From an uncultured bacterium (GTDB lineage: Bacteria; Vulcanimicrobiota; JAJTBE01; CAYNGH01), in the NCBI GenBank assembly GCA_964396845.1, contig CAYNGH010000003.1, positions 2,992-66,991 of the forward strand: a stretch of 64,000 nt of DNA, given 5' to 3'. Every line of letters starts with the position of its first letter. The first letter of the stretch is position 1. This document shows, piece after piece, positions 4,254-35,462 of this stretch. The notes below the pieces were generated by a model, which saw only the letters and a list, made by a program, of their open reading frames with translations, was not told where the DNA came from and made no database searches. The position numbers and the translations under genes were made by a program.

Positions 4254-5402
4254 GTGTTGACTGAAGTCCAGAATATCATGATTTTTGCCGGCGAGGCCTC
4301 GGGGGATCTACAGGGGGCTCTGCTGGCCAGGGAATTAAAAAAATTCAACCCCCATATCAGGTTTTCCGGGGTGGGAGGGATCCAAATGAAAAGCCAGGGG
4401 ATCGACCTGGTTTTTGATTCCACCACCTTCGGGGTCATCGGCCCCTGGGAGGGGATCCGCAATCTGCCCCGGCTGTTACGCCTCTACAGGCAATGCCGGC
4501 AGGTTTTTCTGGACACCAAGCCGGATCTGGCAATATTCATCGACACTCCCGCCTTCTGCATGCGACTGGCTAAACTGAGTCGGGAGGAGAACATAAAAGC
4601 AGTCTATTACTTTCCTCCCTCGGCCTGGTCGGGAAGCGTGAAGCGGGCAGAAGAAGTTGCGGGCCTGGTGGATTCCGTCATCACTGCCTTTCGTTTTACC
4701 GCGGACACTTATGACCGGGGAGGCATCCCTCATTTTTATACGGGGCATCCCCTGGTGGATGTTATGCAGAAATGGAAAAATGCCAACAGGGATAAAATCT
4801 TAAAAGACCTGGGCCTTGAAGACGGCCCTTCCTATGTGGCCCTGATGCCGGGAAGCCGCACTCAGGAGATAAATCATGTGCTCCCCTTGCTGGTTGAAAC
4901 TGCCGGCAGGCTCAAAGAAGAAATCCCCGGAGTTCATTTTTTAATTCCGGTGGCATCGCCACTTCTCCGGGAGAAGATCATGTCAGGAGTCGAAAACTGC
5001 AATGCTCCGGTGAGTCTATTTGATGGCCGTGCTCAGGAGATAATGGCAGTTTGCCGGCTGGTGATTATGGCCTCGGGGAGCGCATCCCTGGAGGCTTCAA
5101 TCCTGGAGGTTCCCATGATCCTCACATACCGGCTCAACCAGTTAGACTACAAGATCATCCGGGCCTTTGTAAAGCAGAAATGGGCAGGACTGCCGAATCT
5201 TATTCTTGAGCGGGAGATTGTACCTGAACTGCTTCAGGAAAAGGCCACAGTTGAAAATATATGCCAAATAGCAAAGGATCTGATCCCTGACGGACAGAAA
5301 AGACAGAAAATGATTCATGACCTCAAGGAGTTGAATAAAGCCCTGGGTGAACCGGGAGTCACAGGCCGTGTGGCAAGGCATATATGGGAGGATGTTTTAT
5401 GA
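4254..5402 (+). CDS. lpxB: lipid-A-disaccharide synthase
   Basis: 382 aa. IFAGEASGDLQGALLARELKK N-terminal motif typical of LpxB (GT19). GTG start 5 nt after AAGGAG. Confidence 0.8.
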   Translation: MLTEVQNIMIFAGEASGDLQGALLARELKKFNPHIRFSGVGGIQMKSQGIDLVFDSTTFGVIGPWEGIRNLPRLLRLYRQCRQVFLDTKPDLAIFIDTPAFCMRLAKLSREENIKAVYYFPPSAWSGSVKRAEEVAGLVDSVITAFRFTADTYDRGGIPHFYTGHPLVDVMQKWKNANRDKILKDLGLEDGPSYVALMPGSRTQEINHVLPLLVETAGRLKEEIPGVHFLIPVASPLLREKIMSGVENCNAPVSLFDGRAQEIMAVCRLVIMASGSASLEASILEVPMILTYRLNQLDYKIIRAFVKQKWAGLPNLILEREIVPELLQEKATVENICQIAKDLIPDGQKRQKMIHDLKELNKALGEPGVTGRVARHIWEDVL

Positions 5403-6649
5403 CTTCCACTCCCTCGGATATTGTCATCGTTTCCAACAGCCCCGGGGAGTTGTCATCCTGGGTAAGGGTCACCGCGAACCGGCTCAAGGAAAAAAGCCCT
5501 GATCAGCGTATCATTCTGGCGCTGGTTCCCTGTCCCTATGCATCGGGCAGGGAAATCAACGTGGCGGAGAGCTTTGATACTGTTGATATTGTTCTTTCCC
5601 CTGCTCAATTTCTCCAGTTTATATTTCTGGGCAGGCTCCCGGCAGAATATACCCCGGCGAAACAGGGAATTGTGGTTTTCCTGGGGGGTGACTATTGGCA
5701 CGCTGCAGGGCTGGCATGGAAACTCCGATACCCTGCGGTGGCTTATACAGCCCGGCCTTATGTGGGCATGCAGAAGCATTTCCGCCATATCTTCTGTCCT
5801 TATCAGTCAGTACGGGATCAGCTGGAAAAAAAGGGAGTTGACAAAGACAAACTGATGGTGGTAGGGAACCTGATGGTGGAAGGAGTCAAGCCCACCACCA
5901 GCCGGGAGGAAGGCTTCCGACGATGGGGGCTTGACCCGGAGATTCTCACCGTGGGGATATTCCCTGGAAGCCGTCTTTATCATATGCAGGATTCATTGCC
6001 GGTTTTTCTAAAAGTTGCCGAGGAGATCCACCGGGAAATCCCGAAAGTGCAGTTTATTCTGGGCCTTTCACCTTTTCTGTCCATCCAGGAACTCACTGAC
6101 TGCCTGAGGGATCCCCAGACCCCCATCCCCGGAAGTGGCGGGCAGGTATCCAACTCCGACAGAGGATGTCAGATAACCACCGCCTGCGGTGTAAAGGTTG
6201 AAGTGTTGGAATCGGATCAGTATGACACCATGAACATGTCCGATGTGGTCCTTACAATCCCCGGCACCAATACTGCAGAGGTGGCATATCTGGGACGGCC
6301 CATGGTGGTGGCGGCTTCATGGAAAGCTCGGATACCCAGGGGAGGCCTGGGATTCTTCCTCAATTCCATACCCATGGGAGGACTCCGCCGGGCCATGATC
6401 CTGAAACTGCTGGAGAAGCAACGGTTCACATCTCTTCCCAATATGATTGCCGGTGAAGCAGTGGTGCCGGAAGTGCTGGTGGAAAACAAAGCAGAAGAAA
6501 TAACAAAAGTTGCCCTGGATCTCATCCGGGACAAAGATCGCCAACAGGCCCTCTCAGAAAGGATGCGCCGGATAATGGGTGGTTCCGGGGCTGTTGACCG
6601 GATAACCGATGCCATCATCGAAATAATAAATTCCCAGGAGGCCCAATGA
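5399..6649 (+). CDS. LpxB-related (GT-B-like) glycosyltransferase, 'lipid-A-disaccharide synthase-related protein' type
   Basis: ORF-track ORF 5384..6649. The better start is ATG 5399 (GGGAGGA 6 nt upstream), which overlaps the lpxB stop as ATGA. N-terminus IVIVSNSPGELSSWVRV parallels the LpxB N-terminal sugar-binding loop. Family assignment is from memory only. Confidence 0.5.
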   Translation: MTSTPSDIVIVSNSPGELSSWVRVTANRLKEKSPDQRIILALVPCPYASGREINVAESFDTVDIVLSPAQFLQFIFLGRLPAEYTPAKQGIVVFLGGDYWHAAGLAWKLRYPAVAYTARPYVGMQKHFRHIFCPYQSVRDQLEKKGVDKDKLMVVGNLMVEGVKPTTSREEGFRRWGLDPEILTVGIFPGSRLYHMQDSLPVFLKVAEEIHREIPKVQFILGLSPFLSIQELTDCLRDPQTPIPGSGGQVSNSDRGCQITTACGVKVEVLESDQYDTMNMSDVVLTIPGTNTAEVAYLGRPMVVAASWKARIPRGGLGFFLNSIPMGGLRRAMILKLLEKQRFTSLPNMIAGEAVVPEVLVENKAEEITKVALDLIRDKDRQQALSERMRRIMGGSGAVDRITDAIIEIINSQEAQ

Positions 6650-7688: not shown

Positions 7689-7733
7689 GGTGTAACCTCC
7701 TCGGATATATAGAAAAATACAGTAAAAAAGCTG

Positions 7734-7937
7734 TTACATATAGGGGATCGCCGGCTTAATCCTCTTCTCGTCGCTGGGATGAGTGAGGGTTGATTTACGG
7801 TAACCGCGAACCTGCTTGTTGGATTTATTGCTTCTTATGTGGGTACATCCGCTGAAGGCCTTGTTGCGCAACAGACGGCCACTGCCTGTGACTTTCACCC
7901 TCTTGGCGATTGCCTTTTTGGTTTTAATTTTGGGCAT
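7734..7937 (-). CDS. rpmI: 50S ribosomal protein L35
   Basis: Internal start gives MPKIKTKKAIAKRVKVTGSGRLLRNKAFSG... (L35 signature), ~67 aa. The longer track ORF (start 7988) adds a non-conserved N-extension. Confidence 0.9.
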   Translation of the reverse strand: MPKIKTKKAIAKRVKVTGSGRLLRNKAFSGCTHIRSNKSNKQVRGYRKSTLTHPSDEKRIKPAIPYM

Positions 7938-10322: not shown

Positions 10323-11051
10323 ATGAACCTGCAACCGGTCCAGCGGATTAAAAACCGCATCAGCACCATCGAAAGCCGAATTCGAAGCCTCTCCGGAGGT
10401 AACTTTGCCGGGGATTCATTTGGCAGTTCCCTGAAAACAGTCAGCGCAAATTCAACATCCCGCCCGGCACTATCTATTCCCACCGCCACAACCACCAAAA
10501 CAACAACAGAAACATCCCCTTCACCCAAGCCCGATAACACCGCCACACCAACACTGAAAACCCGGCACAGCCAAACTCCCATTGAACAAAACCCGGACCT
10601 GCACAAATGGAAAGTCCTGGCCACAGTCATGGAAAGCAGTGAGATTGACGAATCCATCAAAGCCGCCACCATGACAGCCCTGAAATCCCAGAGAACAACA
10701 CCGCCCACAGATCCCCTCAAGGAAACCCTGAAAACAAACCCGGAAAAAATCGTCGAATTTGACGGATTCACCATGCAAGCCCAAACCGCCGTCAAATTCC
10801 GACAACTCAAAACCCTCATAAATAAAAGATTCCCCAACCGGGAAATCCACGTGACATCCACCATGGGAGGAAGACATATCTCACCGGCACACCCCCAGGG
10901 CAGAGCCATCGACTTTGTGGTGGATCACCTCACTATACCCGAATCGATAGAAGTTGAAAAAATGGCCACAAAATGTGGATTCCACGCCTTCAATGAGTAT
11001 ATCCACGATAGCCCCTATAAAACAGGACCACATATGCACGTGGAGTTGTGA
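10323..11051 (+). CDS. peptidase M15 (VanY/L-Ala-D-Glu peptidase-like) domain protein with conserved N-terminal helix motif and Thr/Pro-rich linker
   Basis: C-terminal SPAHPQGRAIDFVVD (H-x-x-G-x-A-x-D) and EYIHD...HMHVE (E-x-x-H, HxH) match M15 zinc-peptidase motifs. Middle region is low-complexity T/P/S-rich. Track ORF begins at TTG 10254; ATG 10323 (MNLQPVQRIKNRISTIESRIRSL) is my preferred start. Confidence 0.5.
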   Translation: MNLQPVQRIKNRISTIESRIRSLSGGNFAGDSFGSSLKTVSANSTSRPALSIPTATTTKTTTETSPSPKPDNTATPTLKTRHSQTPIEQNPDLHKWKVLATVMESSEIDESIKAATMTALKSQRTTPPTDPLKETLKTNPEKIVEFDGFTMQAQTAVKFRQLKTLINKRFPNREIHVTSTMGGRHISPAHPQGRAIDFVVDHLTIPESIEVEKMATKCGFHAFNEYIHDSPYKTGPHMHVEL

Positions 11052-11095
11052 AAAGCACGATAGATGGACTACAAAAAAGCGGTGTGATGCAAGAT

Positions 11096-11142
11096 TTGGT
11101 TTGTGTTGGTTTGGTTTGGTTTGGTTTGGTTTGGTTTGGTTT
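11096..11142. repeat. pentanucleotide microsatellite (TGGTT)n, ~9 units
   Basis: Direct reading: gtgttggtttggtttggtttggtttggtttggtttggttttttc, in the 3' intergenic region after the M15-like gene. Confidence 0.9.
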
Positions 11143-11195
11143 TTTCGGGGGAACCTTTTTCGAGAAAAAGGCTTCCCCCGAACCCCCTCCAAAAA

Positions 11196-11248
11196 GCTTT
11201 AAATCACAGTAATCACCGCATTTTTAATGCCTGGTGATTACTGTAAAT
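11196..11248 (+). terminator. rho-independent terminator
   Basis: ACAGTAATCACC-gcatttttaatgcct-GGTGATTACTGT followed by AAATTTTTT; perfect 12-bp stem. Confidence 0.6.
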
Positions 11249-11268
11249 TTTTTGTGTAAAGAGTCGCC

Positions 11269-11463
11269 TTATTTCTTTTTTTCACTGCTTCCATTGTTTC
11301 CTTGGTTTTGTGGGTTCTGGTTTGCACTGTCACTTTTTGTCTGAATATCAGGTTTCACAGGTAAATCACTTCTACGAGGCGGTTTGTGTATCGAGTTTTT
11401 GGGAATATAGAAATTATCAGATTTAAGCACTTTTCCATTATTGCTGGGCTCATTTTTACACAT
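11269..11463 (-). CDS. hypothetical small basic Asn/Gln/Lys-rich protein (AT-rich islet)
   Basis: 64-aa ORF 14 bp upstream of... correction: it lies 14 bp beyond the stop of the 178-aa membrane-protein ORF on the same strand, inside a ~1-kb low-GC segment. No family recognised; could be non-coding. Confidence 0.3.
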   Translation of the reverse strand: MCKNEPSNNGKVLKSDNFYIPKNSIHKPPRRSDLPVKPDIQTKSDSANQNPQNQGNNGSSEKKK

Positions 11464-11477
11464 TGCCTTACTCCTTT

Positions 11478-12014
11478 CTATGTAATAGAATATATCAACA
11501 AAACAGATCCAACAATTAAGAATAAAATAGAATATGATTCAAAGATTATAATCCACTCTGTCATCCAAGAAGAACTATTATCATTATCTTTGGAATTTAA
11601 CTGTTCTTCTTCTTTGTCCTTGTTTTGCAGTTGTTTTTTCATCATTTCATAATCTTTATCAAGCTTGTCCAACATCTCTTCACAGGCTTGTTTACTAAAT
11701 TTTAATGATAATAGGGCAGACAGTAAACTAAAACCCAAAACAATCAAAAGACTAACAGCGTGATAAATACTTTTTGACTCAGTTATTGTTTTTGATAATG
11801 AAATAGAAAATCCAAATGCACCAGCGGCAAGGGTCACCATAGAGGTGTGAAATCGAAGACTGAGTTCCAATGCACTTTTGTTAAAGTATTCGTACTTTAT
11901 CCTATGATCCTGGTAGCGTAGAAATGCCTCCTGATAATCGTTGTTGTTATCATTGTTATTAACTAAGACAAACTGAGGTCTTTTCTTTTTCCTTCTTGGA
12001 TATAATCCATTCAA
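11478..12014 (-). CDS. hypothetical membrane protein: Asn-rich N-terminus, two central TM helices, coiled-coil, C-terminal TM helix
   Basis: 178 aa. TM segments MVTLAAGAFGFSISL, AVSLLIVLGFSLLSALLSL and WIIIFESYSILFLIVGSVLLIYSI; KQLQNKDKEEEQLNSKD coiled-coil region. Located in the AT-rich islet. Confidence 0.45.
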   Translation of the reverse strand: MNGLYPRRKKKRPQFVLVNNNDNNNDYQEAFLRYQDHRIKYEYFNKSALELSLRFHTSMVTLAAGAFGFSISLSKTITESKSIYHAVSLLIVLGFSLLSALLSLKFSKQACEEMLDKLDKDYEMMKKQLQNKDKEEEQLNSKDNDNSSSWMTEWIIIFESYSILFLIVGSVLLIYSIT

Positions 12015-12285
12015 CTAACTCACCTCACCTTTTAACTGATTTTATCTTTTTATTGATCTACAACATATTATAATTATTCAACCCAATTTTTGTTTCCCTT
12101 CTTTTAAATTTCATTCAGTCTTCTCAAGACTGGATGAAATTGACATAAAGTTTTTTGGAGGGGTTTGGGGATACTTTTTTTCAAAAAAGTTTCCCCAATA
12201 AAACATAAAAGAATAAAACATAAAAGAATAAATAGAAAACAATAATCTATATCTTAATCAATAATCAAGCTGTCGGGCGGTCAGG

Positions 12286-12987
12286 TTACGAGGCGATTTC
12301 CAGTTCCACGGTTTTTCTTGCTCTATGTTCCAGTGTTCCGGAGATGTTGAGTTCTACGGTTTCTATGGCTTTGCGGTTGAGTTCTTCATCGAGGCAGGAG
12401 CCGGTTCTCATGGGTTGTGTGTAGTAGTTTTCCCCGGCCAGCATTTGGTTTTTGATGGATGCTATGTCCAGGGTATCATTGACGGGGGGATAGATTGTGG
12501 TGCGGAATTCATATTCCATCCCTGATTCCCGGCCAGCCTCCCGGATCAGGGCCATAGAGCGGATGCAGTTGCCTTCGATGCCGGGGGTGCCGGTAACTTT
12601 CTCATAGTTTCGCCAGCCGGCTTTCACATCCATTGCCACGTAATCCACAAGTCCTTGTTGCAGGAGGGTTTTGAGGGTCATGGGGTTTGAGCCGTTGGTG
12701 TCCAGTTTAATTTCCAGTCCCATCTCTTTTATCTTCCGGCAAAATTCCACCAGTCCCTGATGGATGGTAGGTTCGCCTCCGGTTATAACCACGCCGTCCA
12801 GGAAAAATTTTCGTCTTTCAATGTGATCCAGCACTTGTTGCGGGGTCAGGTTGTTCCCACCTTCCCGGATAAGTTCCGGGTTATGACAGTATGGACACCG
12901 GAAGTTGCATCCCTTTGTGAATATCATTACCGCTACTCTTCCGGGAAAGTCCAGCAGGGTCAGTTTTTGAATTCCGCCGATTATCAT
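12286..12987 (-). CDS. nrdG: anaerobic ribonucleoside-triphosphate reductase activating protein (radical SAM)
   Basis: LTLLDFPGRVAVMIFTKGCNFRCPYCHNPEL is the canonical NrdG N-terminus; 233 aa; immediately downstream of nrdD. Confidence 0.85.
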   Translation of the reverse strand: MIIGGIQKLTLLDFPGRVAVMIFTKGCNFRCPYCHNPELIREGGNNLTPQQVLDHIERRKFFLDGVVITGGEPTIHQGLVEFCRKIKEMGLEIKLDTNGSNPMTLKTLLQQGLVDYVAMDVKAGWRNYEKVTGTPGIEGNCIRSMALIREAGRESGMEYEFRTTIYPPVNDTLDIASIKNQMLAGENYYTQPMRTGSCLDEELNRKAIETVELNISGTLEHRARKTVELEIAS

Positions 12988-13033
12988 TGCTCTATGACCT
13001 TTTCTTTATATAATGTTTTGGGTTGGGTTGGGA

Positions 13034-15100
13034 TTATGTTCCCACCGAGAAAACTTTTCTCTCCTGGTATTCTTTCTGCTTGCCTTTGTTCCATTGACGC
13101 ACAGGGCGGTGATACCCCATCACCCGTGACCAAACTTCGCATTCGTCGTTGCAATGGGGGCATTTGTGATATTCTCCCGGCAGGTAACCGTGGGCAGGAC
13201 AGATGCTGAAGGTGGGAGTGACGGTAAAATATGGCAGGCGGAAATTGTTGGACACCTTCTTTACAAGGCTCCGGCAGGATTTCCAGTTACTTATTCTTTC
13301 CCCCAGGAATATATGGAATACTGTCCCCCCGGTGTATAGAGTCTGCAATGCGTTCTGATGCTCCAGGGCGCTGATGGGATCGTCGGTGTAGCTTACGGGA
13401 AGCTGAGTTGAGTTGGTATAATATGGTGAATCTGCAGATCCTGCCTGACGGATGCCGGGGTAACGCTTCTTGTCTTCCCGGGCAAACCGGTATGTGGCCC
13501 CTTCTGCGGGGGTGGCCTCCAGATTGAACAGGTTTCCTGTTTCCTCCTGATAGTCAGCTATCCGATCCCGCATGAATACCAGCACTTCTTTGGCGAATTC
13601 CTCCCCGGCAGGTGAGGCAATATCAGAACCCAGCAGGTTCAGACAAGCTTCATTGCCACCGTTGAGGCCGATGGTGGAGAAATGATTCCGCAGGCTGTAA
13701 AGATAACGTTTGGTGAAGGGGAGGAGTCCCTTTTCATAGTTGTCGGTGATGACTTTCCGCTTGATTTCAAGGGAAGATTTTGCCAGATCCATCAGCCTGC
13801 CAAGACCGCGGAAGAATTCTTCCTTGTCGGTGGAAACATATCCCAGCCGGGCCAGGTTGATGGTGACCACTCCCACAGAACCAGTCATTTCCGAGGAGCC
13901 GAACAACCCTCCGCCCCGGGATCGAAGTTCCCGCAGATCCAATTGAAGGCGACAGCACATACTGCGGACATCGGAAGGGTTCAGGGGGGAATTGATAAAG
14001 TTCTGGAAATACGGGGTTCCGTACTTGGCGGTCATCTCGAAGAGCTTCCGGGCATTTTCGCTGTCCCAGTCAAAATCAGGAGTTATGTTGTATGTGGGGA
14101 TGGGGAAGGTGAAAATCCGTCCCTTGGAATCCCCCTCGGTCATAACCTCGATGAATGCCCTGTTGATGAGATCCATCTCCTCCTGAAGCTCGCCGTAGGT
14201 AAAATTCAGGGTCTGGCCACCGATAACCGGGGTCTTGTCCCGGAGATCCACCGGGCATACCCAGTCAAAAGTCACATTGGTGAAGGGCGTCTGAGTTCCC
14301 CATCGGGAAGGGACATTGAGATTAAAAACAAACTGCTGGATGCACTGCTTGACCCGGGGGTAATCCAGCTCCTCCAGCCGGACAAAGGGTGCCAGAAATG
14401 TATCCACCGATGAGAATGCCTGAGCCCCTGCCCATTCGTTCTGAAGAGTTCCCAGGAAGTTCACCATCTGAGCCACTGCAGTTTCCAGATGCTTAGGAGG
14501 CTTGGATTCCACTTTGCCGGGGACTCCGTTGAAGCCTTCCTGCAGGAGTTGCCTCAGGCTCCAGCCGGCGCAGTATCCTGAGAACATATCCAGGTCGTGA
14601 ATGTGCATATCGCCGTTGGTGTGGGCTTCCCGTATTTCCTCGGGATACACATAATTAAGCCAGTAATTGGCGATAATCTTCCCCGCGGTATTTAGAATCA
14701 TCCCCCCCAGGGAATAATCCTGATTGGCGTTAGCCTTGACCCGCCAGTCACTGCGAGAGAGGTATTCATCAATAGTCTTGCTGACCTCCACGGCAACACT
14801 GTTTGCCTGGCGGACACTGGCCCGCTTTTCCCGGTACACTATATAAGCCCGGGCAGTCTTGTAGTATTCAGCGGAGATAAGGGTCATCTCCACCAGATCC
14901 TGTATCTGCTCTACAGTAATTTCCTTGATAAACCTCCGGGAGTTTATGATGCACTGGCAGACCCTGTCGGTTATATCGCCGGAGGTTCGGCCGTTAAATT
15001 CTCTGGTAACTGATGCCGCCTTGGTTATGGCTTTTTCTATTCTCTCTTTTTCAAAAGGGATCCGGTCCCCGTTTCTTTTTACTACCATTGGTAAACTCAT
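13034..15100 (-). CDS. nrdD: anaerobic ribonucleoside-triphosphate reductase (class III)
   Basis: 688 aa. ATP-cone-like N-terminus (VVKRNGDRIPFEKERIEKAI), and a C-terminal Zn-ribbon CPHCNDEC...C plus glycyl-radical region (RVMGYHRPV) as in NrdD. Confidence 0.9.
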   Translation of the reverse strand: MSLPMVVKRNGDRIPFEKERIEKAITKAASVTREFNGRTSGDITDRVCQCIINSRRFIKEITVEQIQDLVEMTLISAEYYKTARAYIVYREKRASVRQANSVAVEVSKTIDEYLSRSDWRVKANANQDYSLGGMILNTAGKIIANYWLNYVYPEEIREAHTNGDMHIHDLDMFSGYCAGWSLRQLLQEGFNGVPGKVESKPPKHLETAVAQMVNFLGTLQNEWAGAQAFSSVDTFLAPFVRLEELDYPRVKQCIQQFVFNLNVPSRWGTQTPFTNVTFDWVCPVDLRDKTPVIGGQTLNFTYGELQEEMDLINRAFIEVMTEGDSKGRIFTFPIPTYNITPDFDWDSENARKLFEMTAKYGTPYFQNFINSPLNPSDVRSMCCRLQLDLRELRSRGGGLFGSSEMTGSVGVVTINLARLGYVSTDKEEFFRGLGRLMDLAKSSLEIKRKVITDNYEKGLLPFTKRYLYSLRNHFSTIGLNGGNEACLNLLGSDIASPAGEEFAKEVLVFMRDRIADYQEETGNLFNLEATPAEGATYRFAREDKKRYPGIRQAGSADSPYYTNSTQLPVSYTDDPISALEHQNALQTLYTGGTVFHIFLGERISNWKSCRSLVKKVSNNFRLPYFTVTPTFSICPAHGYLPGEYHKCPHCNDECEVWSRVMGYHRPVRQWNKGKQKEYQERKVFSVGT

Positions 15101-15796
15101 TGTATCCTCCCAAACAGATAGTCACTTGTCGATTAAAAACTCTGTCCTTGACAGACCAAAAAGGCATCACTTAACCAGGGCATACAGCAATTAAAGCTGA
15201 AAAAACATCCCGTCTTTGCGTTCTCCCTCGCCTTTGATTACAGCCGGCTCCCGGGGTTTTGAGGTTTCAATCCCTAAAAATCCCTTATTGAATCCGGCAG
15301 ATGCATTTTGTAACCAATTTGTTAATTTTAATTCTATATTTTGGCGTGTCGGACTTTCCTGATTGAATAACTATTTGGATAAAACATCTGTCATCACCTT
15401 CTTATTTTTGTATTGAATATAAAAAAATTTTTGTTGAATTAAATTAAAAACCACCCCTGCCTACATGGGTACATACATAGAAATGATGAATAGGGATCAT
15501 AAACCGATGAACTTGATGATTCTGCACAGAAAAAGGAATAATAATATTGAAGACCCCGGGGATGTTTCCCGATGATGACAGGGTGTATCCGGAAGTGCGA
15601 TTATAAAAAATATGTGAATTTATATCTATTTTTGTATTTTAATATTAGTTTCGCCAGAAGTATTGATGATGGCTGCAAAATAATTTATTTTGATATTTGC
15701 TTTTTATGGGGATAACTAAACAAACCTTGATATGGCAGGCTTTTTGCTGTCTTTTATTATAAAAATCGAATAAAAACAAAGAAAAACATAATGTTA

Positions 15797-15836
15797 TAAT
15801 AAAAAAACCCTGTTTTTTTAAAAACAGGGCAGGAGT
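15797..15836 (-). terminator. rho-independent terminator after the dehydrogenase gene (symmetrical, possibly bidirectional)
   Basis: AAAAAAACCCTGTTTTT-tt-AAAAACAGGGCAGG: 10-bp stem flanked by A-run and T-run. Confidence 0.55.
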
Positions 15837-15864
15837 TTTCTGATAAGCGACAATACAATTCGCA

Positions 15865-16782
15865 TCAATATTTCACCAGGATTCTCAGGGGACGGCGGGA
15901 TTCATTTTTTATCCTGTCAAACAAACCAGGCAATTCATCCGTGGAAACCTCTTCTGTAAACATAGTTTCTAATAATTGTTCATAGCCTTCCACATTGTCA
16001 AAAAACCACCGGGCATAAACATGACTGTCAGGATCAAAGCTGGTGGAGAAAAGCTGAAGGTCCCGGCGGTAAAACTCTCTGCTGAGAACCAGTTCTTCAG
16101 GCACTGTATCGGCAATAACAGATATACTCCCCCCGGGAAGCATCCTGGACTGGATCCTCTGGAAGGATTCATTGCTGTTGGAACACTCAAAGGCCACAGG
16201 ATAAAGGCCTCCTACATCCACAGACTCTTCCGGGGTGACAGCAAAGCGGGCTCCCAGTCCCCGGGCCAGCTCACGGCGTTCATCCACCGGCTCTATCACA
16301 TCCACATATTCCTTGCCGGAAGCCTTCAGGACAAACAGAGTAAAAAGTCCCCTCATACCTGCTCCGGAAATAAGAACCGGTTTCCTGGGCCTCGGATTGA
16401 CCTTTCGTATGCCTCCCACCACCTGGGAAGATATGCCAGACAAAAGAGCAATGCGATGGCTCACGCCTTCGGGCACCACGATAACCTGATCCTGATCTGT
16501 TAGGCCCTCTTCCCGGTGGCCATAAAAAGCCAGCACCTGATCTCCCGGTTTTATCCTTTTTACATCAGGGCCACAACGGGTCACCCTGCCCAGGACCTCC
16601 CAGCCCATGAAACGGGGATAATCTCCGGGAACCTGCCCGGTGAATATGGGAAGCTGGGATCCCGCATCCACGGCGCTGTATTCAGTTTTAATCAGCACCT
16701 GCCCGCCTTCTGGAGCAGGCAGTTCAATCTCTTCCCAGGACAGCCTGCCCTGGCTTATTAATTGCAAGGCCCTGATTTTCAT
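15865..16782 (-). CDS. medium-chain (zinc-type/MDR) alcohol dehydrogenase-like oxidoreductase
   Basis: From internal start MKIRALQLISQGRLSWEEIELPAPEGGQVLIKTEYSAV...; later VLISGAGMRGLFTLFVLKASG Rossmann motif. The track ORF extends 32 codons further upstream without support. Confidence 0.7.
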   Translation of the reverse strand: MKIRALQLISQGRLSWEEIELPAPEGGQVLIKTEYSAVDAGSQLPIFTGQVPGDYPRFMGWEVLGRVTRCGPDVKRIKPGDQVLAFYGHREEGLTDQDQVIVVPEGVSHRIALLSGISSQVVGGIRKVNPRPRKPVLISGAGMRGLFTLFVLKASGKEYVDVIEPVDERRELARGLGARFAVTPEESVDVGGLYPVAFECSNSNESFQRIQSRMLPGGSISVIADTVPEELVLSREFYRRDLQLFSTSFDPDSHVYARWFFDNVEGYEQLLETMFTEEVSTDELPGLFDRIKNESRRPLRILVKY

Positions 16783-16974
16783 TTTGATTCCCCCCATCTG
16801 AAATGGGAAATACCAGTTGGGACGGCAATGATCCAATAGCCCACGGCTTCCGGCCCTGGCGGGCATCGGCCTGGCCATGTCATTTCCTTTCCCTCCAGAA
16901 AAATATTATCGCTGTGAAACAGTCAGCCTGAATAATCGGAACTGTTTAATCAGACATTAAATTCTCAAGACTCC

Positions 16975-17649
16975 TCAGGTCAGAGGATCGATTCCACCCC
17001 GCATAAGATTCTTTAGAAACTTCACCTTGTTGAGGCTGTTGATGACCAGCTCAAGGATTTTTCTGGAAATATCCTCAACATCCTGGCTCCCGTCGAGAAC
17101 TCGGAATCTGTCGGGTTCTTCCCGGGATATAAAATGGTAACCTTCCCGCACACGGTGGAAAAAGTCCAGGGTTTCCTTTTCGATACGGTCTGCGGGTTTT
17201 TCCAGCTCCTGGATCCGGTTATAAACCCTGGTGAGTCCCTGGGCCGGGTCCAGATCCAGAAAAATAGTCATATTGGGCCGTACATTCCAGGAAGCCCGAG
17301 AGCTGGTTTCCCGCACCAGATTTTCCGGAAGCCCCCTGCCAAAACACTGGTATGCAAGGGTGGCATCAGAAAAACGGTCGCAGATGACAATCTTGCCCTC
17401 CTCCAGAGAGGGGCGGATCAACCGATCCACATGCTGGGCCCTGGCGGCGCATATCAGAAACAGCTCCGTCAGGGGAGTCATATCATCATAGGAAAGATCT
17501 GTGAAGATTGTTTTAATTGCATTGCCTATGCCGGTTCCTCCCGGTTCTGATGTCAGGACGCAGGGATAGCCCTGCCGGGTAAGCTCGTCAAAGAGGACCC
17601 TGGCCTGGGTAGTCTTGCCGGCTCCCTCAAGCCCCTCAAAGGTGATCAT
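16975..17649 (-). CDS. tmk: thymidylate kinase
   Basis: MITFEGLEGAGKTTQ P-loop and DRF/DRY motif (ICDRFSDATLAYQ) typical of dTMP kinase. Start chosen at MITFEG. Confidence 0.85.
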   Translation of the reverse strand: MITFEGLEGAGKTTQARVLFDELTRQGYPCVLTSEPGGTGIGNAIKTIFTDLSYDDMTPLTELFLICAARAQHVDRLIRPSLEEGKIVICDRFSDATLAYQCFGRGLPENLVRETSSRASWNVRPNMTIFLDLDPAQGLTRVYNRIQELEKPADRIEKETLDFFHRVREGYHFISREEPDRFRVLDGSQDVEDISRKILELVINSLNKVKFLKNLMRGGIDPLT

Positions 17650-17731
17650 ATGTCCTTTCATTAAAATCCTCCAATTTTTGACTGTCAAGGGGGTTATTCA
17701 CCGCAGATGCACTCAATGCCTTCTGAATGCC

Positions 17732-19387
17732 TTAATCCTTGTAAACTCTCACCCGGCGGAAAGGCTCCTGCCCCAGGCTTGAGGATCGCAGGCTGTAGCT
17801 GTTGACAAGCTGGTGCTGAAGCCTCCTCAGATATGAGTTCTGGGGCATTAAATCCACAGAGTTAGAAGAACGGATGACTTCCATTACAGCCTTCTCTGCG
17901 TCCTTCAATGCGGCGTTTTCCATATTCAGTTTTTCCTGCTGGGATTCGGACAGCTCCCCATAAATTGGCTCGCCGGGGCTGTCCTTCACCTGGAAATGTT
18001 CCTTCAGAAATTTCTGAATCTGAGTGACAGTATTGCTCCGGATGGCATGAACCGGGGTTCTGCCCGCGGATTCCCGAATCTTTTTCAATCCCTTGTGCTC
18101 CTGACTCTTGATGGTCAGGACCATATCGGCATCCTCAATCCGGCGAACCACTGCCACTTTCAGCCCCAGAGCCTCTACCGCCTTTTCAATTCTGTTCCGA
18201 CTGACAGCATAGGGGAAAATCCTCACAGCACGGCCTCTGCCGGTCACAGGAGCTCTGGGAGGCGGAAGCTGGCTGTAATAATCATCTGCGGGAGAACTGT
18301 CGGACTCCCGGTTGTTGTTCTCCCGACGGGATCCTTTTTTGAAGCCGTTTCCATCGGAATTCCCCGTCAAGGCACGGCTCTGAACAACACGGTATCCTCC
18401 CGATTCGTCGTCCCTCTCCCGAATCTCCGGGGTGGGGCTTCCTCCCCTTAGCAGAATATCAATCACCTGATCAACATCCTCGTGGATGGCCAGACGGTCT
18501 TTTTCCTGTATCTCAATCACCACATCAAAGGTGGGCGGAGCTTTCCTCTCCAGCACTGTTTTCTGGGTATGTCTGCGCCGGGCCTCTTCATCGGACAGGG
18601 TCACCGCCTGAATGCCTCCCACCAGGTCTGAAAGAGTGGGATTCATAAGAAGATTGGGCAGGGCATTGCCATGAGCCGTGGCAATCAGCTGAACTCCCCG
18701 TTCCGCGATGGTCCTGGCAGCGTAGGCTTCCTGTTCGGTGCCGATCTCATCCACCACGATGACTTCCGGCATATGGTTCTGGACAGCCTCGATCATGACT
18801 TCATGTTGCAGGTCATGATGGGGTACCTGCATTCGCCGGGCCAGGCCGATCCCCGGATGGGGAATATCCCCGTCACCGGCAATCTCATTAGATGTATCAA
18901 CAATAACAACACGTTTTTTAAAATCGTCCGCCAGAACCCTGGCCATTTCCCGAAGCATTGTGGTTTTGCCTACTCCCGGCCTCCCCAGCAGTAAAATGGA
19001 ACGATCTGTATCCACCAGGTCGCTGATGAGGGAGATGGTGCCGTAAACAGCTCTCCCCACCCGCAGGGTCAACCCGATGACATCATTGGTGCGGTTTTTG
19101 ATGGCAGAGATGCGGTGGAGGGTTCGGGGGATGCCGGCCCGGTTATCAGCGCCGAACTTGCCAACCCTTTCCACCACATGATTAATATCCTCAAGATTGA
19201 TAAATTCATCTCTCAGGTAAGTAAAATGGTCTTCAAAACGGGCTTCAGGCCTCCTGCCCAGGTCCATCACCACCTCAATGAGATCCTGCACACCCCGGAG
19301 TTTCTGCAGCGCTCCGGCCACGTCTTCCGGCAGTATGGTAAGAAGCTCGTCAAGGTTGTCAGTAATACGAATTTCACCTTTTGTCAA
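17732..19387 (-). CDS. AAA-type ATPase with C-terminal R3H nucleic-acid-binding domain (Ycf45/SpoIIIAA-like)
   Basis: LLLGRPGVGKTTMLREMARVL Walker A, VIVVDEIGT Walker B, C-terminal R3H-like segment (VRRIEDADMVLTIKSQEHKGLKKIRESAGRT). Confidence 0.7.
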   Translation of the reverse strand: MTKGEIRITDNLDELLTILPEDVAGALQKLRGVQDLIEVVMDLGRRPEARFEDHFTYLRDEFINLEDINHVVERVGKFGADNRAGIPRTLHRISAIKNRTNDVIGLTLRVGRAVYGTISLISDLVDTDRSILLLGRPGVGKTTMLREMARVLADDFKKRVVIVDTSNEIAGDGDIPHPGIGLARRMQVPHHDLQHEVMIEAVQNHMPEVIVVDEIGTEQEAYAARTIAERGVQLIATAHGNALPNLLMNPTLSDLVGGIQAVTLSDEEARRRHTQKTVLERKAPPTFDVVIEIQEKDRLAIHEDVDQVIDILLRGGSPTPEIRERDDESGGYRVVQSRALTGNSDGNGFKKGSRRENNNRESDSSPADDYYSQLPPPRAPVTGRGRAVRIFPYAVSRNRIEKAVEALGLKVAVVRRIEDADMVLTIKSQEHKGLKKIRESAGRTPVHAIRSNTVTQIQKFLKEHFQVKDSPGEPIYGELSESQQEKLNMENAALKDAEKAVMEVIRSSNSVDLMPQNSYLRRLQHQLVNSYSLRSSSLGQEPFRRVRVYKD

Positions 19388-19476
19388 TTATGTATTCAAA
19401 CCTCCTGATCCATTAATTAGAAAAATCTACATTATAATTTATCATTCTCTCCGGTTAACCTTTTGCCGGAGAAAAT

Positions 19477-21006
19477 TTACCTGAATCTTTTCACCACTCG
19501 GATAAACTCAAGGCTCGGGTCTATGGCTCCCTGAATATGAACCCCCGCGTCCATTTCGACGCGGATATAATCAATAATCTCCCGGGTTATCTCATCGCCG
19601 GGACGCAGAATCGGAATCCCCGGCGGATAAGGGGTTATCATCTCAGAGCAGATCCTTCCCTGGGCTTTTTCCAGGGCAATGGTTTCAAAATCCGCCACAT
19701 AAGCATCCCTGGGTGTCATCAATTGACGGGACCAGTCGGGAAGCTCCATGGGCCGGTTCTTTCGTTTGTAAAACAGGCGGATCCGGGACAGAGAGTGATC
19801 CTCCCGGGGCCAGCTGTCGATTTCTCGGAAAGCCTGAATTATCCTGTTCACATCATCCTTGTGGTTGCCGATGGTTATAAGGGCCAAACAGTTAAAGAGA
19901 TCCGACATCTCAAACTGTATATTATAACGTTTCCGCAGTATCGCCTCCACCTCATACCCGGTAAGATCCAACTCCCGGGCAGTGACAGTCAGCTTGGTTC
20001 CGTCGAACCCGTGAACTCCCGGCCTGCCCACAAGTTCGTATCCATAAGCGTGGATGCCGGGAATCCGGTTCAACTCCTGCCGGGCATTTTCCGCCAGCTG
20101 GAGGGTTCTGTCCAGTAGCTCCCGTCCGTGAACCGCCATATTCATACGGGCTGCATCCAGAGAAGCCACCAGAAGACATGAAGGACTGGTGGAGAGAAAC
20201 AGCCGGATTGCCGACTGAAGCCGTCCCACATCTATCCTGTCCCCTTTGACATGAATCATGGATGCCTGGGCCATACTCCCAGTCAGCTTGTGGGTGCTGT
20301 TGACCACCAGGTCCGCTCCCGCACTCAGAGCCGACTGGGGCAACTGTGGATGAAAAGGGAAATGAGGCCCCCAGGCTTCGTCCACCAGAATCGGCTTGCC
20401 ATGAGAGTGGGCGATATCCACCATCTTATGGATATCACAGGCAGCTCCGTAATATGTGGGGGACAGGATAAACACCGCTCTGGTGTCGGGGTGTTCCTTC
20501 AGGGTTTTCTCAAGGGTTTCCGGAGTGACAGTGTGATCCACCTGCATTTCATAGTCATATTCCGGTTCCATATATACAGGACAGGCTCCCGACAGGATCA
20601 AAGCGCCCGTGGCGGAACGGTGAACATTGCGGGGAAGCAGGATTTTTTCTCCCGGGTTGACCGCAGCCATAATCATTGCCAGATTCCCCGAAGAGGAACC
20701 ATTAATCAAAAAAAATGTCCGGTCAGCGCCATATGCCTCCGCGGCGAGGCTCTGAGCTTCTTCCACCACCGACATAGGCTGGTGTATGTCGTCAAGACCC
20801 ATAACCTGGCTCACATCCGAGGCCAGACCATACTTCTTGACAAAATCACGGAACCGGGGCAGAGCACCCTTTCCCTGCTGATGACCGGGAACATGAAAAG
20901 TCGTCACCCCCGAGTCGATATACTTCTCCAGGGCGTCGAAATATGGGGTTCGGGACTGATCGTGAGCTGATGAAGACGCATCTGTTTCATCAAGATTCAG
21001 GGGCAT
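19477..21006 (-). CDS. PLP-dependent Orn/Lys/Arg decarboxylase (fold type I; Bacillus SpeA-like)
   Basis: ~509 aa from MPLNLDETD. FHVPGHQQGKG, ILVDEAWGPHF and STHKLTGSMAQAS (PLP-lysine region) match the OKR_DC_1 family. The longer track ORF N-extension is Cys-rich and unsupported. Confidence 0.8.
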   Translation of the reverse strand: MPLNLDETDASSSAHDQSRTPYFDALEKYIDSGVTTFHVPGHQQGKGALPRFRDFVKKYGLASDVSQVMGLDDIHQPMSVVEEAQSLAAEAYGADRTFFLINGSSSGNLAMIMAAVNPGEKILLPRNVHRSATGALILSGACPVYMEPEYDYEMQVDHTVTPETLEKTLKEHPDTRAVFILSPTYYGAACDIHKMVDIAHSHGKPILVDEAWGPHFPFHPQLPQSALSAGADLVVNSTHKLTGSMAQASMIHVKGDRIDVGRLQSAIRLFLSTSPSCLLVASLDAARMNMAVHGRELLDRTLQLAENARQELNRIPGIHAYGYELVGRPGVHGFDGTKLTVTARELDLTGYEVEAILRKRYNIQFEMSDLFNCLALITIGNHKDDVNRIIQAFREIDSWPREDHSLSRIRLFYKRKNRPMELPDWSRQLMTPRDAYVADFETIALEKAQGRICSEMITPYPPGIPILRPGDEITREIIDYIRVEMDAGVHIQGAIDPSLEFIRVVKRFR

Positions 21007-21187
21007 TATCAAGGAACATCCCTCCTGTGGACACGCCGGCAAAAGGCAACAGTACTCGTCAACCGGCCTTGGCCGTTGCTTTTTAAAGCAGTGTATATCC
21101 ATATGAATCCTTTGTCAAGAAGATAGCAAAAAGAAGGAACAAAAAAGGCCGTCTGCGGGACGGCCCAGAAATATATTGAAGTACAAA

Positions 21188-21826
21188 TTATCCTTTTAAA
21201 CGCCTGGCACCGCAAAATTTCTCGGCATAATAGCCCTGATCCATACGGTCAACAACCACTGGCTTTGCCGCGGTGGGACGATGGACAAATTTTCCGTCGC
21301 CAAGATAAATCCCCACGTGGGTATAGTCGGTAGGCAGGTAGGTGTATCCAAAATATACAATGTCGCCGGGCTTTAAATCTTTCTTTTCTACTTTTTTACC
21401 CTGCTTCTGAAGCTCCCAGCAGTTGACCTCGTGCTTGAAATCGGGAGGAGCGATGCCGGAGTCCTTCACCATCTGGCTTACAAAGTCGGCGCAACGCTCC
21501 CGCTGGCCTGGCTTGAATTCCTTGCCGTCCATCTTGGCTGCATAATCCGCCAGCCTCTGTCCCGCCTGGGATGCGGTAATCCCGCCGATGCCCAGGGCAG
21601 CACTTCCACCGGCCCTGGAAAGAAGGGCCTGAAGACTGTCGGGTGTATTCAGGCCGTTGACCCCCATAGCACCAAGGTTGTTCTGGTTTCCCATGGCCAT
21701 CTTCAGGCTGGAATTGAACTGCATGTGGTTAACCTGAAGGGCCTGGGGCGAGGATACCTGGTTAATTCTCTGCTTGATGGAATTAATCCGGCTCATTACC
21801 CTCTGGATTGCATGAAACTGGGACAT
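21188..21826 (-). CDS. NlpC/P60-family peptidoglycan hydrolase with conserved N-terminal helix motif
   Basis: C-terminal catalytic triad context CADFVSQM ... GDIVYF ... HVGIYLGDGKFVH. N-terminus MSQFHAIQRVMSRINSIKQRINQV. Strong RBS GGGAGGAAG. Confidence 0.7.
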   Translation of the reverse strand: MSQFHAIQRVMSRINSIKQRINQVSSPQALQVNHMQFNSSLKMAMGNQNNLGAMGVNGLNTPDSLQALLSRAGGSAALGIGGITASQAGQRLADYAAKMDGKEFKPGQRERCADFVSQMVKDSGIAPPDFKHEVNCWELQKQGKKVEKKDLKPGDIVYFGYTYLPTDYTHVGIYLGDGKFVHRPTAAKPVVVDRMDQGYYAEKFCGARRLKG

Positions 21827-22008
21827 TTAGCTTCCTCCCGACACAAGAATGTAAAAACAGATGGTGGCGACATCTCCACTTCTATTATTACATTTTTAGA
21901 GGATAAATGAAAGGGGGTTTTGTTAAAATCTTGTTACAAAAGTGTAAAAATTTTTGCACAATTGCAGACATGAAGCCGACATCTATTAATTTTTGTTAAC
22001 AAATCCCA

Positions 22009-25853: not shown

Positions 25854-27416
25854 ATGAAAAAATGGAAAATCCTGATGTTGCTTGTCTTATGCGTCTTTAT
25901 GGCGGCAGCCTTTATACCTGGTTGTACCGGCGGAGTTGAATACAGGTATCAGAGTGACGATCCTGCTCCACCGCCACCGCCTCCGCCACCGCCTCCGGGG
26001 CCCACAGGGACTCCAACTTTTGAAACCGGCAAGGATCTGGTGGAGTTTGTCACCGGCAGGACGAATATTTTTAATATTTCTCTTTGGGGCAGTGACAATA
26101 TCTATCCCTATGCCAATTCCAGCGCTGGTACATATACCGGGCAGGATGTTTACTGGGTTGAGAGTGTTGGAAACCCCAACGGCAGAGTTGCTGTTCTGTC
26201 CAACAGCCGGGTGGGCGATGACGTGGTAACCGGCTTGAATGTACCCCAGGCCTTTGCTCTTCACCGCAGGAACGGTACAAACTACCTGTTTGTTGCCGAA
26301 AGTGGTGGCGGTTCCGGCGGTTCTCTTTATAGATATGACCTGAGTACCAATCCTCCCACTGCTACCACCCTGGCTTCAGGACTCCAGGGAGAAGTTTATT
26401 ACATGGCTCTGGACAATCCTGAATCATTGGATCCTTGGCTCTATTATGCCGTGGATGCCGGGGGAACCAGTTCTGTCCTGGCCCGGGTTGTTTCCCATTC
26501 CACAAACCCGGTCCCCCAGGTCATATCAACCAGCCTGAGCAATGTCCATCATGTCTATGTTTATTCTCAATTCATTCCCCAGGGGGCCGTGGATCCTGAC
26601 ACCGGCGATGATGTGTCGGTTCAGCCCAATGCCAGTGACTTTGTCTTTGTGACCGAGGACCTGGGAACACCCAACGGAAAAGTGCTGATGTTCAATGTTT
26701 CCAACTGGAACGGCACTGCCCCGCTGACTCCCGTTGAGATAAATTCCGGCAACGGGCAGAATCGTCCAGCCAAGATCACCTTTGTGCCGGATATCAAGGA
26801 ATACCTTGTTAATGGTGAATCCCGGTATGGCCACACAGACAATACCGGAGGCACAATCTTCTGGACCAACTATGCATCCAATACCGGCGAGGTATGGGGC
26901 GCAAGGCTGGAGATTAACGGCTCGGGAACAAATATGGAAGTAACTGATGGCCCCAAGAAAATCGCAGAATCCCTCCGCATGTCTTATGACATAATCGGTC
27001 CCGATGATTTCCGCTATCTTTTCACCACCTTCAATGGCAACACTCCAACCCATGTCAGCGGAAACAAATATGATGTGTGGGCGGACTATGTGGCAAACGG
27101 CAACGAGTTATTCAACCGTCTTTATGTTTCCCGCAATGAAGCCAGAGGCGACGGTGGCAATTACTATGTGATTGACCTGAATGCCTACAACGATTCACCT
27201 CTTACGCCAGGCAACGGTGTGAGCAATTTCATAACAGAGAATGCTCAGTTCCCCTTGAATGGAAAGATGCAGGTTTATCTGTATGATCCTGATGATGGTT
27301 CGATTCCCCAGGCATATCGGATGGACTTGTTCTTCACCGGTATGGAGAGGGATACCGGATCCAACAACACATATATTTATATATTCAAAAACAAGTTCAG
27401 CCCTCCGGGGTCATAA
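25854..27416 (+). CDS. secreted lipoprotein with poly-proline linker and beta-rich (propeller-like) body
   Basis: Signal peptide MKKWKILMLLVLCVFMAAAFIPGC, then PAPPPPPPPPPPGPTGTP; rest rich in G/N/T/Y/V as in beta-propellers. 520 aa. Confidence 0.6.
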   Translation: MKKWKILMLLVLCVFMAAAFIPGCTGGVEYRYQSDDPAPPPPPPPPPPGPTGTPTFETGKDLVEFVTGRTNIFNISLWGSDNIYPYANSSAGTYTGQDVYWVESVGNPNGRVAVLSNSRVGDDVVTGLNVPQAFALHRRNGTNYLFVAESGGGSGGSLYRYDLSTNPPTATTLASGLQGEVYYMALDNPESLDPWLYYAVDAGGTSSVLARVVSHSTNPVPQVISTSLSNVHHVYVYSQFIPQGAVDPDTGDDVSVQPNASDFVFVTEDLGTPNGKVLMFNVSNWNGTAPLTPVEINSGNGQNRPAKITFVPDIKEYLVNGESRYGHTDNTGGTIFWTNYASNTGEVWGARLEINGSGTNMEVTDGPKKIAESLRMSYDIIGPDDFRYLFTTFNGNTPTHVSGNKYDVWADYVANGNELFNRLYVSRNEARGDGGNYYVIDLNAYNDSPLTPGNGVSNFITENAQFPLNGKMQVYLYDPDDGSIPQAYRMDLFFTGMERDTGSNNTYIYIFKNKFSPPGS

Positions 27417-27478: not shown

Positions 27479-27622
27479 CATGTTAACATATTATTAACAT
27501 GCGAAGAGGTTAAGTTGTATCTCATGTAATGCTGATGATTGCTGGTTTTTCGAGGCTATGTATATTGGATGCCTACAGCATGGCTTTTCTTGAGAAATGC
27601 AGACAATTAGGATATAATAAAT

Positions 27623-33204: not shown

Positions 33205-33537
33205 TCCGGGGAGTTCTACGGAACCCCGGAGTGCCTGGTGATAAAAAGATCCTCCACCGGCTTTTTTTGATTTTTCTAAACAACAAAACTCCCCGAACCA
33301 ACATTATCCCGGCAGGAACTGGTTTCCCCAGGGGGAGAAATATAACTCTTTGCCAAAATGAATACCTGACTGTTATGGGTAATCAAAAAACAGCATACCA
33401 AACCTGTAAGGCAAAATTCAATGTATTCCAGGCAGAGAGAATGATTCCTGATTATTTTAAAAAACATGTAACAGCTGGCCCGAACTGTTGTCTAATTTGT
33501 TTGGGCAGCTTCAGAAAGACCATACGGGGAGAATGGT

Positions 33538-35336: not shown

Positions 35337-35462
35337 TTTCCTGCCTGGAGGTAAAAATCATGCCGGGAAGTAATTTAACTATTTCCCATTTGCCCTGATT
35401 TCCCTCCATTTTTGTCCAGTGTTAACAAACTGTTAACACCTTGTCGGTTGTGAAGGGGAAAC

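Follow-up and report, generated by a model that had tools for sequence, protein, structure and literature searches.

A 64,000-nucleotide stretch of the genome of an uncultured bacterium assigned to the Vulcanimicrobiota (assembly GCA_964396845.1, contig CAYNGH010000003.1, positions 2,992 to 66,991; hereafter "the window") encodes two predicted peptidoglycan hydrolases of unrelated catalytic class, A and B, that begin with one and the same N-terminal leader. Gene A (10323..11051, plus strand) codes for a 242-residue protein in which the leader is followed by a long Thr/Pro/Ser-rich linker and a C-terminal zinc peptidase domain of LAS (Hedgehog/DD-peptidase) fold. Gene B (21188..21826, minus strand) codes for a 212-residue protein in which it is followed by a Gly/Asn/Met-rich linker and a C-terminal NlpC/P60 cysteine peptidase domain. 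The leader probably acts as a Sec-independent export or targeting signal. The more specific reading, a shared Sec-independent leader for which a type III gate is the best candidate, is given a probability of roughly 0.35.

A first-pass annotation made from the sequence of the window had drawn attention to the N-terminal likeness of the two hydrolases, and both open reading frames (ORFs) and both N-termini (MNLQPVQRIKNRISTIESRIRSL in A and MSQFHAIQRVMSRINSIKQRINQV in B) are exactly as it described them. The proteins share a 19-residue ungapped match, VQRIKNRISTIESRIRSLS against IQRVMSRINSIKQRINQVS, with a BLOSUM62 score of 46, which was reached by one of 20,000 shuffles of the first 30 residues of B. 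The local alignment of full-length A and B scores 57, a value reached by none of 2,000 shuffles. Comparison by HHalign of N-terminal profiles built from the A family only and from the B family only aligned 52 columns with a probability of 98.2% (E 6e-14). The homology of the N-terminal regions is thus upheld by the shuffles and by profile–profile statistics, though BLASTP misses it: a search of A against B returned a lone unrelated 6-residue match (E = 11) and did not report the N-terminal one. Under a hidden Markov model (HMM) of the module only, A scored 46 bits and B 68 bits, and all other ORFs of the window stayed at or below 6.5 bits; carriers scored 46–69 bits, versus at most 11.5 bits in ~20,000 control ORFs.

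When 1.84 billion representatives were searched exhaustively by HMMER with the profile of the module only, nine proteins came up at E <= 1e-3, namely A-family and B-family members, a repeat protein (P0134) and short ORFs of Leptospira interrogans. P0134, which has five NRITAIEARF stretches, was judged a false positive. One may ask whether the likeness arose by chance or by low-complexity convergence of two amphipathic helices, as the match is short, rich in R, I, S, N and Q, and goes unseen by BLASTP. Against this stand the shuffle tests and the HHalign E value, the presence of a second, collinear motif (and, in B and part of the A orthologues, of a third), a register at Met1 that is identical in every carrier, and the recovery from the whole search set of nothing beyond the two families and the Leptospira ORF. 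Chance convergence is ruled out by the shuffles, the profile search and HHalign, and these sequence comparisons confirm that the N-termini of A and B are a genuine, homologous and portable module.

Anatomy of the leader and of its two carriers

Judged from its sequence, the leader is a unit of ~45–75 residues with three collinear elements that stands in place of a Sec signal. The first element is a three-heptad amphipathic helix that runs from about residue 2–7 to residue 24 and follows the pattern I/V-Q-x-V-x-x-R-I-x-x-I-x-x-R-I/F. In orthologue alignments, it carries Ile/Val at six successive a/d heptad positions, an invariant R-I and conserved Arg at g positions. In A, the helix covers residues 4–24 (10332..10394, plus strand; AlphaFold model and alignments) with V6, I9, I13, I16, I20 and L23 at the a/d positions; in the A-family alignment R12 and I16 are invariant and I13 is nearly so. 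In B, it covers residues 2–25 (21752..21823, minus strand; alignments and predicted structure) with I7, V10, I14, I17, I21 and V24 at a/d, and R13, I14 and I17 are invariant.

The second element, an F-x-x-x-L(K)xA(M) patch, comes 12–20 variable residues after the helix. It reads F33-G-S-S-L37 in A (10419..10433, plus strand), where F33 and L37 are invariant in the family, and F37-N-S-S-L41 in B (21704..21718, minus strand), where it lies within a short predicted helix of residues 37–44. The third element, a (G)PDSLxALL patch, is present in B and in some A orthologues (P0003, P0004, P0131 and the A protein of locus L133); in B it is P62-D-S-L-Q-A-L-L69 (21620..21643, minus strand), with a predicted helix over residues 63–71. 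AlphaFold places a short helix over each element and low-confidence linkers between them, with a predicted local distance difference test score (pLDDT) of 57–74 for the helix. The ~18-residue helix of the first-pass annotation therefore stands, and the module extends beyond it to the F-x-x-x-L patch and, in B and some A proteins, to the PDSL patch. It is conserved in the orthologues of both families. All 30 carriers have their first hydrophobic residue at positions 2–4, and 29 of them have an F-x-x-x-Phi motif at residues 33–46; in the carriers with the motif it begins 24–43 residues past the first hydrophobic residue. A Pfam scan of the module gave nothing at E <= 10, and the NCBIfam scan was likewise null.

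The absence of a classical Sec signal, as originally claimed, is borne out. In the first 80 residues of all 30 carriers the Kyte–Doolittle mean over 12 residues does not exceed 1.14, which leaves no room for a hydrophobic core of Sec type or a transmembrane segment. No RR motif was found at the N-terminus of either A or B, and a twin-arginine translocation (Tat) signal, which would need RR plus an h-region, was rejected. A membrane-anchoring amphipathic helix was also rejected, the hydrophobic stripe being limited to the a/d positions, as was a double-glycine leader of the peptidase-containing ABC transporter (PCAT) type, since the GG of S24-G25-G26 in A is found neither in A orthologues nor in any B protein.

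The catalytic domain of A (residues ~131–242; 10713..11048, plus strand) was delimited by invariant motifs, the AlphaFold model and a fold search; the protein has no sequence match in Pfam, NCBIfam, PHROG or PDB. The motifs H190-x6-D197 and H237-x-H239, invariant in nine homologues, are read by us as the zinc and catalytic signature of LAS peptidases, H-x(3-6)-D plus H-x-H. The model has a pLDDT above 90 over most of these C-terminal ~110 residues, and the top 38 matches of a Foldseek search of the PDB with it were Hedgehog N-terminal domains (E down to 2.8e-5). Hedgehog proteins and DD-peptidases have a common fold. The sole solved bacterial peptidase in the list was ChiX (5opz), a weak match with an E of 0.09. 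On the evidence of model and motifs, A is a member of the LAS superfamily outside any named M15 family. The earlier label "M15-like" holds at the level of fold, motif and superfamily and fails at that of curated M15 sequence families. The start codon of A is consistent with those of its orthologues.

Assignment of B to NlpC/P60, also made in the first-pass annotation, is secured by a match to PF00877 of 53.6 bits (cutoff 23; E 2.4e-14; residues 112–209). Profile, orthologue alignment and predicted structure together place the domain at residues 85–212 (21191..21574, minus strand). C112, H170 and H182 are invariant across 16 orthologues, and from knowledge of the family we take them to be the catalytic triad. 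Orthologues are mostly 50–70% identical to B. Among curated families, B comes closest to secreted wall endopeptidases of the MepS, RipC and EntFM types, with scores that all lie well under the family cutoffs. The start of B is fixed by an in-frame stop codon directly upstream together with a GGGAGG ribosome-binding site.

The linkers between leader and catalytic domain are 40–100 residues long and disordered. The low-complexity linker of A (residues ~42–130; 10446..10712, plus strand) lies where pLDDT is below 50 for most of residues 26–90 and ~60 for residues 91–130. Gene A has a strong strand-composition bias at window positions 10400–11000 (AT skew +0.38, GC skew −0.31), presumably caused by the Thr/Lys/Pro-rich codons of the linker.

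Gene order, relatives and distribution

In four other genomes (L005/6, L007-9, L132 and L133) A is directly followed by B on the same strand with a gap of ~80–220 bp; the adjacent pairs occupy L005 1842-3718, L007 10001-11674, L132 1242-2679 and L133 1810-3015. The infC-rpmI-rplT genes adjoin the pair in L007 and likewise adjoin A in the window. In the window A and B are ~10 kb apart with B inverted, and nrdDG, an ADH-like gene, tmk, an R3H ATPase gene and a decarboxylase gene lie between them; since the genes are adjacent in the four other genomes, this separation and inversion appear to be secondary. As judged from gene order, A and B are ancestral neighbours. Module-bearing B genes also occur with no A nearby (L010, L011 and L015), and module-bearing A genes with no B nearby (L097, L098, L134 and L138). 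The neighbours of the A-type genes in L097 and L098 have no module.

Within one genome, the helix cores of A and B usually match at 5–7 of 18 positions. At locus L133 they are alike at 16 of 18; ~70 residues align there with a score of 146, after which the unrelated catalytic domains follow. The identity of the two leaders at the DNA level is patchy, with one identical run of 26 nt. This pattern suggests that the leader was copied or homogenised between the neighbouring genes, not very recently, and it follows from the near-identity that the leader is a portable unit that can be copied from one neighbouring gene to another.

The nearest B orthologues come from metagenome-assembled genomes labelled Vulcanimicrobiota/Eremiobacterota and, in one case, Bacillota. 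SLT genes in the Vulcanimicrobiota loci encode ordinary signal peptides and no module. Paralogues of the catalytic domain of B with other odd N-termini and no module were seen in Eremiobacterota/Vulcanimicrobiota (P0032-P0061; loci L012-L022). In some of these, Met/Gln-rich runs (MMQMMQMLQMM) give way to Gly/Cys-rich stretches; in others, a hydrophobic segment is preceded by cationic Gly-rich repeats (GRVVRGIGRAIGGVVRG); and several have no obvious classical signal peptide.

The sole carrier outside the A and B families is the ORF of Leptospira interrogans, a member of a genus of flagellated spirochaetes. At this locus (L004 4848-5433; AFME02000140.1) the module ORF runs in line into an SLT domain, both lying in one frame that is split by a TGA codon. 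Ahead of its catalytic Glu, the SLT part lacks a separate start codon. The ORF may be cautiously counted, from its sequence, as a third catalytic class behind the leader. The gene may be decayed, recoded by read-through or split, so that a pseudogene, two genes or phase variation are all possible.

Relatives of both catalytic domains were found in viral contigs. Those of the LAS domain of A form the C-terminal end of tail/baseplate-hub proteins (phrog_52, 8e-83; phrog_196), and the NlpC/P60 domain of B has its relatives at the head of a virion protein that exceeds 1,150 residues and includes an SLT region as well (L102 495-1883, L103 7161-8549, L101 3303-3989 and L105 7839-11300). A and B could be phage-derived cargo or lysis enzymes, either a holin-released prophage endolysin pair or leader-loaded effectors of a contractile-injection or type VI secretion system (T6SS). 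ChiX, a signal-less LAS peptidase exported via a holin (ChiX/ChiW type 10 secretion), shares the LAS fold with A at the weak level given above and like A has no signal peptide; a small protein with three transmembrane segments and a weak DUF2951 match is encoded beside A in an AT-rich island. What speaks against such an origin is the distribution of the leader and the gene context. The module was found on none of the viral copies, where tail, baseplate or virion proteins serve as fusion partners of the domains, whereas the chromosomal genes carry it. No phage, holin, spanin, sheath, tube or baseplate gene adjoins or is linked to A or B in any genome examined, and an immunity-like gene is likewise missing. 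The gene for the membrane protein next to A runs on the opposite strand and does not recur in other genomes, and the conserved place next to infC-rpmI-rplT argues for a core gene. We know of no N-terminal leader on ChiX. A phage-tail-like apparatus was among the partners suggested by the first-pass annotation; what remains of that idea is that tail proteins carry relatives of both catalytic domains, those copies being without the module. We consider a phage-derived pair very unlikely.

Export and its alternatives

We propose that one Sec-independent route would take A and B across or to the envelope, with the leader as its recognition signal. That the leader is probably an export or targeting signal is argued from its shared position at the extreme N-terminus, the lack of any known export signal, the disordered linkers and the ancestral linkage of the genes. 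Thr/Pro-rich disordered linkers are, we infer, typical of extracytoplasmic wall enzymes; here they would set the leader apart from the catalytic domain. The adjacency of A and B and the likeness of the L133 leaders fit co-evolution with one shared partner, and the catalytic domain types are those that envelope-crossing machines bring along, and that phages mount on tail and virion proteins, to breach the wall locally. A common export or targeting route, as first suggested, remains the best reading.

For the route itself, a type III gate of the flagellar kind is the leading candidate. In sequence pattern, the leader is laid out like the bipartite signal, defined by experiment, of the early substrates of flagellar type III export. 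In FlgD this signal consists of hydrophobic residues at 2–5 and a gate recognition motif (GRM) at 36–40, with a required spacing of at least 19 residues and an optimum of ~24 (PMC8983047). E. coli FlgB, FlgD, FlgE, FlgF, FlgG, FlgJ, FliE and FliK have F-x-x-x-Phi at residues 29–45. By analogy with the handling of early rod/hook substrates and FlgJ, the gate (in flagella, FlhB-C) would be the docking site of the F-x-x-x-L patch, and the channel would be engaged by the hydrophobic helix at the N-terminus. The early substrates thus resemble A and B in having small hydrophobic residues at the N-terminus and F-x-x-x-Phi at ~30–45, at least 19–24 residues apart. FlgJ also delivers a wall hydrolase by flagellar export. 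Some FlgJ proteins carry a peptidase domain (PMC13584718), and therefore peptidases can serve at the rod. Among 20 flagellar proteins, the N-terminus of FliE gave the best score with the module (10.8 bits) and aligned with it end to end from Met1, the HHalign probability being 20.9%, which is not significant. A stand-alone FliO gene (PF04347, E 3e-15), set between smpB and a spermidine-synthase gene, is found 1.3 kb away from a divergent A homologue (L090). The contig with this FliO gene also holds a large Tubulin_2-domain gene with HEAT-repeat neighbours (L090 8339-8725 and 19561-20552).

The closest precedent is B. subtilis CwlQ, a signal-less lytic transglycosylase secreted in a FliF-dependent manner, for which residues 2–35 are required (bioRxiv 10.1101/2021.01.13.426625). 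CwlQ has in common with A and B that it is small, cuts peptidoglycan, has no Sec or Tat signal and starts with a region of unknown function, and its gene lies outside flagellar operons; the Leptospira ORF is a further parallel, as its module runs into an SLT-type domain as in CwlQ. The likeness is one of architecture. The catalytic domains of A and B are peptidases (LAS and NlpC/P60) and that of CwlQ is SLT. BB0259, the flagellar lytic transglycosylase of Borrelia, was set aside as an analogue on account of its Sec lipobox signal.

A number of observations weigh against a type III gate. The window holds no flagellar, injectisome, T6SS or contractile-injection gene, and when 20 E. coli flagellar proteins were run by tblastn against ~1.8 Mb of related loci, only ATP-synthase cross-matches to FliI came back. 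The gene sets for flagellar type III, T6SS or contractile-injection systems that the first-pass annotation had proposed to look for are thus found neither in the window nor in ~2 Mb of related loci, which are small portions of the genomes. In the nearest named phylum, the only representative in culture bears type IV pili and is without flagella (PMC9758169), and the lineage that hosts A and B is not known to be flagellated. Unlike the early flagellar substrates, A and B have no significant sequence similarity to flagellar families and no C-terminal axial-protein domain. FliE was not recovered in an unbiased PDB search, where unrelated proteins scored 12–14 bits. Five module-bearing N-terminal fragments gave no match at E <= 10 to the FlgJ Rod-binding domain (PF10135), and the module is not part of this or any other annotated Pfam domain, which the first-pass annotation had considered as an explanation. 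The F-x-x-x-Phi motif is short and could serve another partner. As for the Leptospira ORF, its in-frame TGA is conserved in two divergent strain groups, and two A7 homopolymer runs flank the junction, one of them frameshifted in one assembly.

Promoter sequences point the same way. CwlQ is sigma-D dependent, in contrast to A and B: a sigma-28 (SigD) promoter of the form TAAA-N15-GCCGATAA was not found upstream of A, B, their orthologues or the Leptospira ORF, and the best matches had 2–4 mismatches and were equalled by 29–295 of 300 shuffles. The promoter region of B (21884..21948, minus strand), which is kept upstream of B orthologues, has an extended -10 element of sigma-70 type, TGTAATAAT, at 21892-21884. 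Because no type III genes are seen, the cultured relative is non-flagellate, no flagellar promoter is present and the FliE likeness is not significant, we hold type III export as the route of the leader to be tentative, at about one chance in three.

Upstream of its -10 element, the B promoter has direct repeats TGTAAC-N5-TTTAAC / TGTTAC.. at 21921-21948 (TGTTAAC-like, ~11-bp spacing). Such TGTWAH-N5-TGTWAH repeats we liken to the marks of the WalR cell-wall regulon of Firmicutes; they are consistent with a housekeeping autolysin. CwlO-type hydrolases in Firmicutes are controlled by the WalR direct-repeat regulon, and CwlO, PcsB, RipC and EnvC bind FtsEX via coiled-coil domains. These proteins resemble A and B in joining an N-terminal helical region to an NlpC/P60, CHAP or M23 domain and in their housekeeping role in wall growth. 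The helix of the leader could accordingly be a short coiled-coil docking or regulatory element that zips A to B into a hydrolase complex with two activities or binds a shared regulator or scaffold, with export achieved by other means. Its perfect a/d heptad pattern with the conserved Arg at g, the adjacency of A and B in four genomes, the homogenised helices of L133 and the good conservation of B orthologues are in favour of docking. Docking leaves the missing export signal unexplained, as well as the equally conserved F-x-x-x-L patch and the fixed position at the extreme N-terminus. The FtsEX-controlled hydrolases differ in carrying Sec signal peptides and coiled coils of 200–300 residues, compared to a helix of 21 residues at the extreme N-terminus of A and B followed by the F-x-x-x-L patch, and the AlphaFold helices are of moderate confidence only. 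Since many genomes have A or B without the other nearby, heterodimerisation is not the general function. We regard docking as possible, though rather unlikely.

The absence of an export signal of known kind would also be expected if A and B remained in the cytoplasm and recycled cell-wall peptides, B as a YkfC-type gamma-D-Glu-diaminopimelate (DAP) endopeptidase and A as a LAS dipeptidase or L-Ala-D-Glu peptidase, with the helix serving to oligomerise them. Neighbouring genes are of the housekeeping kind in every genome examined, and family knowledge suggests that A and B would cut complementary bonds of a stem peptide. Disordered linkers as long as those described above are unusual for metabolic enzymes, however, and the best curated matches of B are secreted enzymes, while its phage relatives are tail lysins. 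In addition, an SLT domain, for which there is no cytoplasmic substrate, follows this leader in Leptospira; no epimerase, LD-carboxypeptidase or transporter genes are linked to A and B. Peptide recycling is distinctly improbable.

Returning to the Sec-independent leader, its route may also be one not previously described, used for wall hydrolases in a diderm candidate phylum that possibly has no flagella; we consider this unlikely, though conceivable. In that case, a dedicated machine would recognise the heptad helix and the F-x-x-x-L patch, or a remnant of a type III-like gate would operate independently of flagella, and the leader class would have distant members in the Leptospira ORF and perhaps in enzymes of the CwlQ type.

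Surroundings of the genes and meaning of the leader

The window is core chromosome, with infC, the EF-G gene, two lpxB-like genes, nrdD/nrdG, tmk, recF, dciA and mnmG, and without genes for secretion or flagella. The presence of LpxB indicates a diderm host and that of NrdDG an anaerobic one. The two lpxB-like genes are consecutive and overlapping (4254-6649), the first coding for a full LpxB (4e-82) and the second for a divergent 421-aa paralogue (2e-14). Large ORFs without a Pfam match are found as an adjacent pair at 47549-51349 (634 and 627 aa) and at 25854-27416 and 36132-37514 (520 and 460 aa).

A (TTTGG)x9.6 tandem repeat (11095-11142) starts 44 bp past the stop codon of A. It is followed by the AT-rich island (GC 0.32; 11200-12200), which is not present in related loci and whose gene (11478..12014, minus strand) codes for the 178-residue protein with three predicted hydrophobic segments and the weak DUF2951 match. 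Directly past the stop codon of B there is an intrinsic terminator (21146..21166, minus strand; 8-bp stem with six G-C pairs and a T-run), and B is therefore monocistronic in the window.

The direct repeat TGTWAH-N5-TKTWAH occurs nine times in the window versus 0.31 expected, and none of 100 shuffles reached nine. Sites are at 7722-7738, 15309-15325, 21921-21948, 27483-27499, 33457-33473 and 35420-35438. Several copies are intergenic, in possible promoters ahead of, among others, B, nrdD and a PLD gene. The motif, which to our eye resembles a WalR/OmpR-family site, is probably a widespread regulon or promoter element of the lineage.

How signal-less wall hydrolases reach the wall, and which hydrolases open it for envelope-spanning machines, are open problems; for Gram-positive flagella we know of no dedicated wall-opening enzyme. 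In the literature searched, CwlQ was the sole enzyme found to be reported as secreted by the flagellar apparatus. The leader of A and B is not described in any library searched, and CwlQ is the one known precedent for its architecture, in which a hydrolase with no signal peptide starts with a region of unknown function. Since current domain libraries miss it, the module deserves a family definition. It is compact, conserved and easily mutated, and it is common to two classes of peptidase and apparently one class of glycosidase. If a flagellar-type gate is indeed its receiver, the CwlQ observation would be extended to another phylum and to peptidases. If it is not, the leader would point to a so far unrecognised export route in a phylum that has hardly been studied by experiment.

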